From a virus (Duplodnaviria > Heunggongvirae > Uroviricota > Caudoviricetes), in the IMG/VR virus record IMGVR_UViG_2639763169_000007: 5,313 nucleotides of DNA. The stretch is one strand, 5' to 3'. This document shows, in pieces, positions 766-3,459 of the stretch (positions are counted from its first letter, which is position 1; each line of letters starts with the position of its first letter). The position numbers and the translations under genes are program-made. The notes beneath the pieces are model-generated. The model worked only from the letters and a program-made list of their open reading frames with translations, did no database searches and had not been told where the DNA came from.

Positions 766-807
766 TGAACCGCCCCGGGTTTCCTGGAGAGTGTTTTATC
801 TGTGAAC

Positions 808-1694
808 TCAGGCTGCCAGATCATCGTTTCCGATGGAAGCATAATAAGCTTTTTCTGCTTCTGCCGGAGGGATGTGGCCCAGCCTTTCCAGCAATCGTCG
901 ATTGTTATACCAGTCCACCCACGTGAGTGTGGCCAGTTCCACTTCTGCACGGTTTTTCCAGCTCTTACGGTGTATTACCTCCGCTTTGTAAAGACCATTG
1001 ATGCTCTCCGCCATCGCGTTGTCATACGAGTCGCCTGTACTTCCTGTTGATGCCAGTAATCCGGCTTCCTTAAGCCGCTGTGTGTAGGCCAGCGATACAT
1101 ACTGAGAACCTTTATCACTGTGATGGACCGTGCCGGACGGTCGACGGGCCCATAACGCCTGCTCCAGTGCATCCAGCACGAATGTCGTTTCCATGGACGA
1201 TGAGACCCGCCACCCCACGATGTATCCGGCAAACACATCAATGATGAACGCCACATAGACGAAGCCCCGCCATGTGCTGACGTAAGTAAAATCAGCCACC
1301 CACAGCTGGTCAGGTCGTTCTGCCACGAACTGACGGTTTACGCGGTCGCCTGCGGCAACGGCTTTCCGGCTGATGGTCGTACGGACCTTTTTACCCCGGA
1401 GAACACCGGCAAGTCCCATAACCGCCATGAGACGTGCCACAGTGCATCTGGCCACTCTGATACCTTCCCGTAACAACTGACGCCAGACTTTACACCGTAT
1501 ACCTTGTGATTTTCATCGTATACGCGCTGTATCTCTTTCTTCAGCCAGTCATCGCGCTGCGCACGGGCACTGCGTTTATCCGGATGATGTCGCTGTTGCT
1601 GACAGTGGTAATACGTTGACGGGGCAATATGCAGTTCGCTGCATAGCGGTCCGCCCCCGTACTGCTCACGCAGCTTATCCAGCAGTGGCATCAT
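808..1694 (-). pseudogene. IS629 OrfB (DDE transposase catalytic domain) interrupted by a frameshift near 1489-1493
   Basis: ORF 1338..1694 reads [13 protein letters not shown]…ENHKVYGV then turns to nonsense. The second ORF 808..1476 begins with a TTG shown as M, and its frame reads …[22 protein letters not shown]…DRGSQY…[13 protein letters not shown]… upstream of that. The switch falls between YGV and KVWRQ, where an uninterrupted IS3-family OrfB is continuous, consistent with a net 4-nt loss. Confidence 0.8.
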
Positions 1695-2017
1695 TTTTTC
1701 CAGAGGCGGTCGAACTCCGCCTTCGCAAAATAAGCGGAAGCCTGGCGAAGGATATCGTTACTGCGGCGCAGTTCACGATTTTCACGCTCCAGCTCTTTCA
1801 GACGCTGACGTTCAGCGGTGGTGAGCCCTCCATCACCGCCCCCGGTATCCCGCTCATGCTGGCGACCCCAGACACGCAGAGTCTCCGGCGTACAGCCAAT
1901 CTTTGGAGCAATGGAACAAATTGTCGCCCATTGTGAGTCATATTCGCCCTGACTTTCCAGAACCATACGGACTGCCCGTTGACGGACTTCGGGGGAAAAA
2001 CGAGTATTTTTAGTCAT
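1691..2017 (-). CDS. IS629 OrfA (IS3-family transposase N-terminal HTH protein), 108 aa, intact
   Basis: ORF track 1691..2017 minus ([50 protein letters not shown]…). GAGG Shine-Dalgarno upstream inside the left IR region. Stop overlaps the orfB ATG (ATGA). Confidence 0.9.
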
Positions 2018-2071
2018 CCTGTTTACCTCTTTCTCAGGAAGTTTAGTCTCCAGGATTCCCGGGGCGGTTCA

Positions 2072-2195
2072 TAAGCGACAGTAATCGATTCTTTGTGAAC
2101 ATCTAACCCGACGTACAATGTGTTATTGTTGTTCATGCTGGCCTCCGTGGTGGAAATACCGGGGTGTAGCAACAGCTCACCCATGCGGCTCTGAC
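2072..2195 (-). pseudogene. Orphan 5' end of a transposase-like gene (possible IS110-family DEDD N-terminus), truncated by IS629
   Basis: Minus-strand ATG at 2136-2134 preceded by GGAGG at a 6-nt spacing. It encodes MNNNNTLYVGLDVHKESITVA before running into the IS629 terminus at 2071. The VGLDVHK motif resembles the G-[IVL]-D-V-x-K start of IS110-family transposases. The fragment is short and the family assignment is tentative. Confidence 0.3.
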
Positions 2196-2259
2196 TGAGG
2201 TAGCCTGAGTTTAACGGACACTCCTTCCTGAAATAGAATGGCATCAGAAGGAGCTAATA

Positions 2260-2562
2260 ATGAGCAGAAAAACCCAACGTTACTCTAAAGAGTTCAAAGC
2301 CGAAGCTGTCAGAACGGTTCTTGAAAATCAACTTTCGATCAGTGAAGGCGCTTCCCGATTATCTCTTCCTGAAGGCACTTTAGGACAATGGGTTACCGCC
2401 GCCAGAAAAGGGCTCGGTACTCCTGGTTCCCGCACGGTGGCTGAACTGGAATCTGAAATTCTGCAACTGCGTAAGGCGTTAAATGAAGCTCGCCTTGAGC
2501 GAGATATATTAAAAAAAGCAACAGCGTATTTTGCACAGGAGTCGCTGAAAAATACGCGTTAA
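2260..2562 (+). CDS. IS600 OrfA (transposase HTH / leucine-zipper subunit), 100 aa
   Basis: ORF track 2260..2562 plus (MSRKTQRYSKEFKAEAVRTVLENQLSISEGASRLSLPEGTLGQWV…). GGAG Shine-Dalgarno upstream at about 2249. Confidence 0.9.
   Translation: MSRKTQRYSKEFKAEAVRTVLENQLSISEGASRLSLPEGTLGQWVTAARKGLGTPGSRTVAELESEILQLRKALNEARLERDILKKATAYFAQESLKNTR
2511..2517 (+). other. Putative programmed -1 ribosomal frameshift site (A AAA AAA, then G) to make the OrfAB fusion transposase of IS600
   Basis: The A7G run lies in the orfA frame as TTA AAA AAA GCA. The -1 frame is open from here and reads KKSNSVFCTGVAEKYALIEQWRQQFPIEAMCQVF… straight into orfB. This is the classic IS3-family A6G/A7 slippery motif. 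Confidence 0.55.
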
Positions 2563-2597
2563 TCGAACAATGGCGACAACAATTTCCCATTGAAGCG

Positions 2598-3416
2598 ATG
2601 TGTCAGGTATTTGGTGTATCCAGGAGCGGTTATTACAACTGGGTACAGCATGAACCCTCAGACAGAAAACAAAGTGATGAGCGGCTAAAACTGGAGATTA
2701 AGGTGGCACATATCCGCACTCGCGAAACATATGGAACCCGGCGGCTCCAGACGGAGCTGGCAGAGAATGGCATCATCGTTGGTCGTGACCGACTGGCACG
2801 TCTTCGTAAGGAGCTGAGGCTACGCTGTAAGCAGAAACGCAAGTTCAGAGCGACTACGAACCCGAACCACAATCTGCCAGTTGCGCCAAATCTGCTGAAC
2901 CAGACGTTCGCTCCTACAGCACCAAATCAGGTCTGGGTGGCGGACCTGACGTATGTTGCCACACAGGAGGGATGGTTGTACCTCGCTGGCATCAAAGATG
3001 TTTATACGTGCGAAATTGTCGGCTACGCCATGGGAGAGCGCATGACAAAAGAGCTGACAGGTAAAGCCCTGTTTATGGCGCTCAGGAGCCAGCGCCCACC
3101 TGCCGGGCTAATCCACCACTCTGATCGAGGTTCACAGTACTGCGCATACGATTACCGGGTCATACAGGAGCAGTTTGGTCTGAAAACATCAATGTCGCGT
3201 AAAGGTAACTGTTACGACAACGCTCCGATGGAAAGCTTCTGGGGAACGCTGAAAAATGAGAGCCTGAGCCACTATCGTTTTAATAACCGGGATGAAGCCA
3301 TCTCAGTAATACGGGAATACATTGAGATTTTCTACAATCGTCAGCGTCGTCACTCTCGTCTGGGGAATATCTCCCCGGCAGCCTTCAGGGAAAAATATCA
3401 TCAGATGGCTGCTTAA
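2598..3416 (+). CDS. IS600 OrfB (DDE transposase catalytic domain), 272 aa from first ATG; frame open from about 2511
   Basis: ORF track 2598..3416 plus, with IS3-family catalytic motifs (…WVADLTYV…HHSDRGSQY…YDNAPMESFWGTLK…). It sits in the -1 frame relative to orfA. Confidence 0.9.
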   Translation: MCQVFGVSRSGYYNWVQHEPSDRKQSDERLKLEIKVAHIRTRETYGTRRLQTELAENGIIVGRDRLARLRKELRLRCKQKRKFRATTNPNHNLPVAPNLLNQTFAPTAPNQVWVADLTYVATQEGWLYLAGIKDVYTCEIVGYAMGERMTKELTGKALFMALRSQRPPAGLIHHSDRGSQYCAYDYRVIQEQFGLKTSMSRKGNCYDNAPMESFWGTLKNESLSHYRFNNRDEAISVIREYIEIFYNRQRRHSRLGNISPAAFREKYHQMAA

Positions 3417-3459
3417 AAAAAGAACAAATGGTAGTGTCCGCTATTGCCAGTACACCTCA

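Follow-up and report, generated by a model that had tools for sequence, protein, structure and literature searches.

Introduction

How two different insertion sequences (IS), IS629 and IS600, came to lie head to head around a short piece of a third element, between phage-derived flanks, is the question raised by the 5,313-nucleotide stretch of DNA analysed here (the window), which belongs to the serotype-conversion region of Shigella flexneri at thrW (proA-adrA). Shigella genomes contain hundreds of copies of IS1, IS600, IS629 and other elements and differ from each other by large inversions (PMC4226921). A first-pass annotation had proposed that IS-mediated adjacent deletions or recombination between IS copies left a scar here that joins two unrelated prophage remnants. 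According to our analysis, the locus is probably a non-functional junction scar within the thrW ("SHI-O") prophage graveyard, the centre of which would have been copied from a second locus, cobU, by means of IS homology.

Results and Discussion

Anatomy of the locus

The window is composed of the following parts:

1..160, minus strand: 5' part of the xis excisionase gene of an SfII/SfV/SfIV-type prophage, leaving the window leftward, towards an SfII-type int
160..465, minus strand: yfdT homologue (SfII_32), intact ORF of 101 aa
465..765, minus strand: DUF551 gene (SfII_33 homologue), first 62 nt missing, cut by IS629
766..2071, minus strand: IS629 (IS3 family), 1306 bp, flanked by ttc/taa
2072..2195, minus strand: internal fragment of ISSso6 (IS110 family), 124 bp, nt 1333-1456 of the 1527-bp element (window orientation)
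2196..3459, plus strand: IS600 (IS3 family), 1264 bp, flanked by gac/ggg
3460..3818, plus strand: int-2, a second thrW-specific tyrosine integrase, last 359 bp (residues 267-384)
3819..3878, minus strand: hybrid att site, 14-bp linker and 46-bp core (3833-3878)
3879..4079, plus strand: gtrA-side arm of the SfI/SfII attP and region upstream of gtrA (identity to SfI and SfII 99.5-99.8% from 3815 onward)
4080..4442, plus strand: gtrA, 120 aa, Pfam GtrA_DPMS_TM
4439..5313, plus strand: 5' part of gtrB, leaving the window at its right edge

A search of E. coli genomes with the whole window returned IS matches alone, and the unique parts were searched separately. On the left, the xis stub is 98.8-99.6% identical to SfII, SfV and SfIV, in which it is annotated as xis, and its counterpart in the IS-free E. 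coli 120899 is an HTH-domain gene adjoining int and thrW. The yfdT annotation recurs in 1567 E. coli genomes with an identity of up to 99.6%. The truncated gene next to it gives a Pfam match to DUF551, and the end of IS629 coincides exactly with nt 63 of SfII_33, where the identity to SfII begins. The left flank, initially described as lambdoid early-operon DNA on the minus strand, is indeed the end of an SfII/SfV-type early-left operon, and the span first proposed for the scar, 766-3459, corresponds to the exact outer ends of the two IS.

The right flank departs from the initial description, in which the plus-strand integrase was assigned to the gtr phage. SfI, SfII and SfV match the window only from position 3815 onward, and the int-2 fragment, in which Pfam recognizes the C-terminal part of Phage_integrase, shares only 60% protein identity with SfII Int. 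Its counterpart, found in E. coli lambdoid prophages, is another thrW integrase, which E. coli PD7 carries in full length next to thrW-proA (99.7% DNA and 98% protein identity). The SfII-type int itself sits just left of the window, after xis. ARAGORN found no complete tRNA in the window; the 46-bp att core is identical to the 3' end of the tRNA-Thr gene thrW, as seen in an alignment with thrW of L027 and PD7 and with the SfII attP. Hereby, the left att arm is identical to the int-2/thrW junction of PD7 and the right arm to the gtrA side of the SfII attP, so that an SfI-type gtrA-gtrB pair is joined to the end of int-2 through a hybrid att site. Such a hybrid site is expected between tandem prophages, and judged by its sequence the att at 3819-3878 qualifies as a tandem-prophage junction with an int-2 prophage left arm and a gtr phage right arm. 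Rather than the unrelated modules they were first taken for, the flanks are what is left of several phages with a common att site, thrW, and they include a hybrid att of the kind typical for tandem lysogens.

Tandem integration of SfI and SfX at thrW has been shown experimentally (PMC3306764), and the resulting order, int - att core - gtrA of the next prophage, is the architecture found at 3819-3878. Unlike in the SfI-SfX tandem, the upstream integrase in the window is the divergent int-2, cut down to its last 359 bp by IS600. In the same paper, the legend of Figure 2 counts IS600, IS629 and a putative int among the host genes resident between proA and yaiC. As to the gtr genes, gtrB is so annotated in SfI, SfII and SfV, a Glycos_transf_2 gene follows gtrA in all relatives, and the exact GtrA protein of the window is present in gtrI-carrying S. 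flexneri genomes.

The 124 bp between the two IS, which had been attributed to a third element, do come from one. In 43 E. coli genomes, copies of ISSso6 match positions 2072-2195 without a difference (124/124 bp, 100%), the boundaries of the element being defined here from three copies. The piece comprises a 59-bp leader and the first 21-22 transposase codons and is therefore a fragment, not a complete 1527-bp ISSso6 with its transposase gene; its 21-residue N-terminal transposase stub matches no Pfam family.

IS termini and outer junctions

IS629 ends in TGAACCGCC...GGCGGTTCA and IS600 in TGAGGTAGCC...ACACCTCA, each pair forming the terminal inverted repeat of its element. Each has hundreds of full-length matches in E. 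coli and Shigella (98.6-99.9% overall), IS629 with 98.6-99.9% identity over 1306 bp, the length of all Shigella IS629 copies compared, and IS600 with 99.6-99.9%. The orfA of IS629 is intact (1691-2017), while its orfB is frameshifted: compared with an E. coli copy, 4 bp are deleted near 1491, which splits the ORF. In IS600 both orfA (2260-2562) and orfB (2598-3416) are intact, encoding 100 and 272 aa with HTH_Tnp_1 and rve domains.

No direct repeat of 3-4 bp is found at either element (ttc/taa for IS629, gac/ggg for IS600). This absence, already noted at first inspection, could in principle result from wrongly set termini, both IS being simple insertions with overlooked duplications. Apart from the prior expectation for IS3-family elements nothing favours this explanation, and its chances are next to nil. 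A sister IS600 within the SfII-type int of relatives and a sister IS629 within an IS66-family element have the same ends as the copies in the window and are flanked by perfect 3-bp duplications (AAG/AAG and GTG/GTG, respectively), from which it follows that the termini are correctly placed; upon re-examination, moving the ends by a few bases yields no repeat either. Furthermore, the flanks are non-contiguous in the IS-free relatives L050 and L013 and in phage SfII. For the two IS of the window, simple insertion is already refuted. An apparent 7-bp flank match of another IS629 copy turned out to be a BLAST extension over mismatches and was dropped. Nor does the unit as a whole look like a composite transposon, given that two different IS stand at its ends and that no duplication surrounds it (ttc...ggg here, att...ctc at cobU).

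Every relative examined has the same outer junctions as the window, tcatttactttc/IS629 and IS600/gggtgtttgtcc; these relatives are the gtrII loci L001, L017, L019 and L041, the gtrI loci L027-L036 and the gtr-less L018. Being common to all these S. flexneri relatives, the outer junctions are best understood as old deletion endpoints. In IS-free E. coli relatives the left flank continues into yfdR/yfdQ/yfdP and the right-flank integrase is present next to thrW in full length; in this comparison, which had been suggested at the outset, the two flanks are never contiguous.

Partner IS copies carrying the missing half-duplications, which the first-pass annotation anticipated elsewhere in the genome, did not turn up within 10 kb in any relative. 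Likewise, the missing partner sequences sought (SfII DNA upstream of the break, the 5' part of int-2, and ISSso6 nt 313-1330 and 1457-1527) are absent within 10 kb in 25 Shigella loci. In the gtrI relatives, the DNA left of the window reads xis - SfII-type int - att core - oacB, with IS629/IS600 copies near adrA closing the block; matching of target-site duplications between the IS629 of the scar and the IS629 near adrA gave no pairs. An inverted second IS600 just left of the window was considered as carrier of the other half of int-2, as a simple IS600-IS600 inversion would produce. The idea was rejected because this IS600 interrupts another integrase gene, the SfII-type int, as a simple insertion flanked by AAG duplications.

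Two centres at two loci

Within the shared outer junctions, the centre of the scar is polymorphic. The 124-bp ISSso6 centre occurs at thrW in the window and in L001, L017, L019, L052 and L053. Most relatives instead have a centre of 44 bp (L018, L027-29, L031-32, L034-36 and L041), which corresponds to codons ~60-74 of a lambdoid prophage ASCH-domain gene that shares its strand with xis and yfdT. A scan of species representatives for the 44-bp centre gave no matches. Some of the reference assemblies are uneven in quality, L001 for instance showing many broken ORFs and an indel in thrW.

The arrangement IS629-124 bp-IS600 is also present at the cobU locus, with inner junctions identical to those of the thrW version. 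There, ISSso6 nt 1-312 follow after IS629 and a truncated cobU after IS600. Since more of ISSso6 (nt 1-312) survives at cobU, this locus appears to be the older home of the 124-bp fragment. In CP026871.1 the two loci differ, thrW (L028) carrying the 44-bp centre and cobU (L048) the 124-bp one, whereas CP182556.1 and CP178302.1 have the 124-bp centre at thrW and cobU alike. The presence of the same centre at both loci of one genome indicates that the transfer was a copy, not a swap. When the thrW and cobU composites of CP182556.1 are compared (window coordinates 1188-3459), full identity is limited to 1575-2363; beyond this tract, 3 sites differ in IS629 and 14 in IS600.

The window itself shows a related mosaic at about ten sites. 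The unique flanks of gtrI thrW loci are 100% identical to the window. Its SNPs near the spacer (1866, 1907 and 2437) are the cobU-copy alleles of gtrI strains, and its outer SNPs (1787, 1791, 2502, 2884, 3011, 3175 and 3243) are their thrW-copy alleles; the outer SNP at 816 has a cobU-like allele, though one that is common in other copies too. The relatives display what gene conversion would be expected to leave, that is, a donor that is kept, a recipient that is changed and a bounded tract of identity, and for the window conversion is suggested by the SNP mosaic only.

Conversion among the IS copies of one genome is frequent and may blur tract boundaries. In L041, a gtrII locus with the 44-bp centre, the outer part of IS600 resembles the cobU copy of another strain, which implies that exchanges between thrW and cobU were more tangled than one conversion.

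Origin of the centre

On this sequence evidence, ectopic gene conversion via IS homology is the most likely source of the ISSso6 centre. Three other origins have to be weighed against it. The centre of the window could be an assembly artefact, the short spacer between 1.3-kb repeats having been misplaced or filled from a 2a reference. We consider this unlikely. It is true that the ten gtrI genomes with a GtrA identical to that of the window all have a 44-bp or disrupted centre, that the window is the sole gtrI-flanked 124-bp centre seen, and that its exact sequence is in none of the fetched loci. However, these GtrA-identical genomes were sampled from only 24 of 2712 index blocks, the same arrangement is present in several independent gtrII assemblies (L001, L017, L019, L052 and L053), and the mosaic SNP pattern is what a real conversion is expected to produce. 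Alternatively, two successive large inversions between thrW and cobU, with crossovers in IS629 and then in IS600, could have swapped the 44-bp and 124-bp spacers reciprocally. The head-to-head layout shared by composites at two distant loci would allow this, the IS600 alleles of L041 and of the cobU copy of SFBU1023 hint at exchanges of whole IS, and for S. flexneri 2a genomes large inversions mediated by IS are on record (PMC4226921). Yet a swap does not yield the 124-bp centre at both loci, as found in CP182556.1 and CP178302.1, and is rejected for these two genomes; its other product, an ISSso6(1-312)-IS629-44 bp-IS600-cobU' locus, was not seen. Moreover, the identity between the two loci in CP182556.1 is limited to ≤0.8 kb around the spacer, which fits conversion better than two independent crossovers. 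Taken together, reciprocal exchange seems quite improbable.

An explanation by transposase events alone is more improbable still. In E. coli O157, IS629 is known to cause adjacent deletions, and adjacent deletions through intramolecular transposition of IS629 or IS600 could account for the old outer junctions as well as for the 1020-bp gap in ISSso6 at cobU; alternatively, IS629-124 bp-IS600 could have moved as a composite. Against this, the ends of the unit are the right ends of two different IS, no duplication is found at thrW or cobU, and the IS629 copy concerned has a frameshifted orfB. An adjacent deletion, in addition, cannot exchange the ASCH fragment for the ISSso6 fragment while keeping both outer junctions. 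Because these junctions are shared across two different centres, the transposase-only reading is refuted for the centre.

Proposed history

With conversion as the preferred origin of the centre, the following history may be proposed, in which the order of events and the repair mechanism are what we infer. Several lambdoid phages would have integrated successively at thrW, and IS629 and IS600, both very abundant in S. flexneri, would then have inserted into these prophages. Deletions and at least one inversion with endpoints in IS copies presumably removed most of the phage DNA, placing IS629 against nt 63 of the DUF551 early gene and IS600 against nt 797 of the older integrase gene, and inversions would have turned the left block away from the right one. 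The outer junctions may go back either to recombination between IS copies or to adjacent deletions by a transposase. Earlier, the two IS at thrW would have been separated by the 44 bp of the prophage ASCH-domain gene. In the lineage of the window, this centre was probably overwritten by the 124-bp ISSso6 fragment together with the neighbouring few hundred bp at the inner ends of IS629 and IS600, the donor being the second IS629-spacer-IS600 structure at cobU. Such a transfer could proceed by non-reciprocal homologous recombination, i.e. ectopic gene conversion or double-strand-gap repair, with the IS pair serving as homology arms, and would require no transposase. The original idea of a scar left by IS-mediated deletion or recombination thus stands insofar as neither IS is a simple insertion and deletion or rearrangement ran through IS copies; it has to be given up for the centre, which would not have been left by adjacent deletion but brought from cobU in place of the 44-bp spacer.

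More tentatively, the thrW and cobU pairs could form a recurrent conversion pair, the ISSso6 allele having been copied into thrW independently in at least two lineages (gtrII-type and gtrI-type), a possibility that we hold to be open to considerable doubt. If true, heterologous DNA between two different IS could spread by homology alone, amounting to a transposase-free movement of short cargo.

Relation to known systems and significance

The scar is real, but it represents ordinary genome decay, and the underlying biology is already known. With the IS-mediated decay described for Shigella (PMC4226921) it shares the use of IS copies as portable homology for deletion, inversion and conversion, and prophages that are degraded and locked. 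It differs from this general decay in that one small heterologous spacer would have been transferred non-reciprocally between two head-to-head IS629/IS600 pairs. The locus therefore offers a clean, small example of IS acting as homology arms by which a spacer is copied between distant loci.

Outside annotation and strain typing the finding is of little importance. It helps to explain the locked gtr serotype-conversion genes of S. flexneri, in that neither of the nearby integrases is intact and the phage bodies are lost, and it serves as a warning not to assign the integrase fragment beside gtrA to the gtr phage. The difference between 44-bp and 124-bp centres is a possible lineage marker and, at the same time, a trap for assemblers.

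The closest described counterpart is SHI-O, the cryptic SfI prophage of serotype 1c strain Y394 (PMC5596473). As far as the available part of that account goes, its proA-adrA interval holds gtrA-gtrB-gtrI, several transposases, phage hypothetical genes and oacB ~6.8 kb upstream of gtrA, a gene content and spacing that agree with our relatives L027 and L036, to which the GtrA and the right flank of the window are identical. The same part of the account describes a cryptic prophage with transposases and does not mention a second integrase, a hybrid att, missing duplications or a variable centre. The gtrI relatives examined here have the 44-bp centre, whereas the window has 124 bp. Finally, judged from gene order only, the left block of the gtrI relatives resembles the oacB "transposon-like structure" upstream of adrA (Wang et al. 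2014, in the form in which PMC4159516 cites it).

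Genomic placement and feature map

By exact-protein look-ups, the structure maps to the interval from proA-thrW to adrA in Shigella flexneri; the exact sequence of the window occurs in none of the fetched loci. The window is organized as follows.

Features of the window (coordinates, strand, description)
1-160, minus: start of xis, the excisionase gene
160-465, minus: yfdT homologue
465-765, minus: DUF551 gene without its first 62 nt
766-2071, minus: IS629
2072-2195, minus: ISSso6 fragment, 124 bp
2196-3459, plus: IS600
3460-3818, plus: last 359 bp of a tyrosine integrase gene (int-2)
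3819-3878, minus: att site, whose 46-bp core (3833-3878) is the 3' end of tRNA-Thr thrW
4080-4442, plus: gtrA
4439 onward, plus: start of gtrB

No complete tRNA was detected in the window by ARAGORN. Gene callers also report two minus-strand ORFs that cross junctions, one of 73 aa (2023-2244) that runs from the IS600 end through the ISSso6 fragment into the IS629 end, and one of 119-161 aa (465-824/950) that begins within IS629 and enters the DUF551 gene. These two calls are artefacts of annotation but served as exact-match probes.

Across GtrA and the entire right flank the window is identical to S. flexneri gtrI strains (gtrI product of 506 aa), and its left flank shows no variation in any strain compared. 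In the gtrI strains oacB lies ~6.8 kb upstream of gtrA, in agreement with the published description of the cryptic SfI prophage of strain Y394 (PMC5596473).

Ends of the IS elements

The termini of both elements are unambiguous (TGAACCGCC...GGCGGTTCA for IS629 and TGAGGTAGCC...ACACCTCA for IS600), and full-length alignment to numerous copies from E. coli and Shigella gives identities of 98.6-99.9%. IS629 is flanked by ttc and taa and IS600 by gac and ggg, so that neither carries a target duplication. The same termini border perfect 3-bp duplications in sister copies, namely AAG/AAG for an IS600 that interrupts the SfII-type int in relatives and GTG/GTG for an IS629 in an IS66-family element. 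Thus, the duplications are truly absent rather than obscured by mis-set ends, and the first-pass annotation was right in finding no direct repeats. Hidden simple insertions are refuted by these sister copies and by the flanks of an IS-free relative, E. coli 120899, in which the left-flank genes lie in a thrW prophage and continue into yfdR, yfdQ and yfdP, in keeping with the earlier view that the flanks are not those of simple insertions.

IS600 looks intact. IS629 is 1306 bp long, and a 4-bp deletion near 1491 (compared to an E. coli copy) splits or frameshifts orfB; since all S. flexneri IS629 copies compared are likewise 1306 bp, this orfB-defective allele seems to be the common form in the species. 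The sister IS600 in the SfII-type int, present in L017, L027 and other loci, is missing from several draft contigs (L020-L025), where int is uninterrupted (387 aa) and followed by att and oacB. This insertion is thus polymorphic and more recent. One gtrI strain (L028, 4865-6111) harbors an extra IS of ~1.25 kb within xis, at window position ~111-114, with flanks overlapping by 4 bp; unlike the scar, it resembles a simple insertion flanked by its duplication.

Two prophages at thrW

The left flank matches SfII, SfV and SfIV at 98.8-99.6% identity over their xis - SfII_32 - SfII_33 end, and the match breaks off at nt 63 of SfII_33, precisely at the boundary with IS629. On the right, SfI, SfII and SfV match from 3815 onward only. 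The integrase fragment, previously ascribed to the gtr phage, belongs to a different gene: it shares only 60% protein identity with SfII Int, compared to 99.7% DNA and 98% protein identity with residues 267-384 of the E. coli PD7 integrase adjoining thrW-proA. The left arm of the att site corresponds to the PD7 int/thrW junction and the right arm to the gtrA side of SfII attP. Hence, this att is not an intact attP but a hybrid that combines an arm of an int-2-type prophage with an arm of the gtr phage. It is the junction expected of two prophages in tandem at thrW and records tandem lysogeny; tandem integration at this site was shown experimentally for SfI and SfX (PMC3306764).

A gtr prophage at thrW of E. 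coli YZ22MPE54 (L014, 5001-5055) has, left of the att core, ~55 bp resembling the 3' end of an int-2-like gene, adjoining a LysR pseudogene; this stretch may likewise be a relic of an earlier prophage.

Shared outer junctions and a variable centre

Both outer junctions, tcatttactttc to IS629 and IS600 to gggtgtttgtcc, are common to every relative compared, i.e. gtrII loci (L001, L017, L019, L041), gtrI loci (L027-L036) and the gtr-less L018. They are old deletion endpoints, which recombination between IS copies or transposase-mediated adjacent deletion would have produced. The left block points away from the right one, which implies at least one inversion as well. The partner copies with the missing half-duplications proposed earlier were not recovered, as no complementary half-sites lie within 10 kb in 25 loci.

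The centre exists in two forms. The window, L001, L017, L019, L052 and L053 carry 124 bp with 100% identity to ISSso6 (IS110 family; 1527 bp, as set by comparison of three full copies), which confirms its supposed origin in a third element. It corresponds to ISSso6 nt 1333-1456 in window orientation, comprising 59 bp of leader and the first 21-22 transposase codons. L018, L027-29, L031-32, L034-36 and L041 instead have 44 bp from an ASCH-domain gene (codons ~60-74) that belongs to lambdoid early-left operons; given the strand shared with xis and yfdT, these are most likely local prophage debris.

In other genomes, the interval from cobU to yeeX also contains IS629-124 bp-IS600 with identical inner junctions. 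At this locus, ISSso6 nt 1-312 is still present after IS629, and a truncated cobU comes after IS600, which identifies cobU as the older home of the fragment. Movement as a composite transposon is refuted by the flanks at thrW and cobU. In CP026871.1 the centre measures 44 bp at thrW (L028) and 124 bp at cobU (L048); S. flexneri SFBU1023 (CP182556.1) and CP178302.1 have 124 bp at both loci. The fragment was thus copied and not swapped, and these genomes make a reciprocal exchange of spacers by two inversions very unlikely. The two SFBU1023 composites (window 1188-3459) are identical only over 1575-2363, with 3 differing sites in IS629 and 14 in IS600 outside it, a pattern that is the signature of a conversion tract. 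In the window, the SNPs nearest the spacer (1866, 1907, 2437) match the cobU copy of gtrI strains and those farther out (1787, 1791, 2502, 2884, 3011, 3175, 3243) the thrW copy of these strains, with site 816 as the exception.

The present centre is therefore best explained by ectopic gene conversion, in which the cobU composite would have served as template for the repair of a break or gap close to the 44-bp spacer, IS629 and IS600 being the putative homology arms. An assembly artefact could account for the window being the sole gtrI-flanked 124-bp example among the loci compared, but is rather unlikely, as several independent gtrII assemblies show the same arrangement. The first-pass reading of an IS-mediated deletion or recombination scar holds for the outer junctions, whereas the centre points to conversion from cobU. 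Exchanges between thrW and cobU exceed a single event: the thrW IS600 of L041 (8639-9902; gtrII, 44-bp centre) shares variants 2852, 2963-2987, 3011 and 3175 with IS600 of the SFBU1023 cobU locus (L051).

IS-driven prophage decay at thrW is well documented (PMC5596473, PMC3306764, PMC4159516, PMC4226921); the second integrase, the hybrid att, the variable centre and the copying from cobU are added details refining this known biology.

Related rearrangements

In the gtr-less L018 the block int-2'-att-gtrA-gtrB-gtrI-tfa' is gone (7446-8709 versus 8117-15225 in L027), and its sole IS600 has on its left the flank of one direct copy and on its right that of the next copy. Such a clean deletion between IS600 copies, which takes out the serotype genes, shows the pattern expected for direct-repeat deletion.

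L001 (CP178302.1), deposited as E. coli ECMA0423, is of gtrII type and resembles S. flexneri. A 1-nt deletion in its thrW anticodon region (14756-14830) and fragmented proA/proB ORFs (14900-17300) are probably assembly indel errors, and its SNPs are thus to be used cautiously. Head-to-head IS629/IS600 also occurs in some E. coli strains, as in 90-3040 (L039, NZ_CP027459.1, 401-2985), where the two elements are separated by 12 bp and lie between bluR' and minE.
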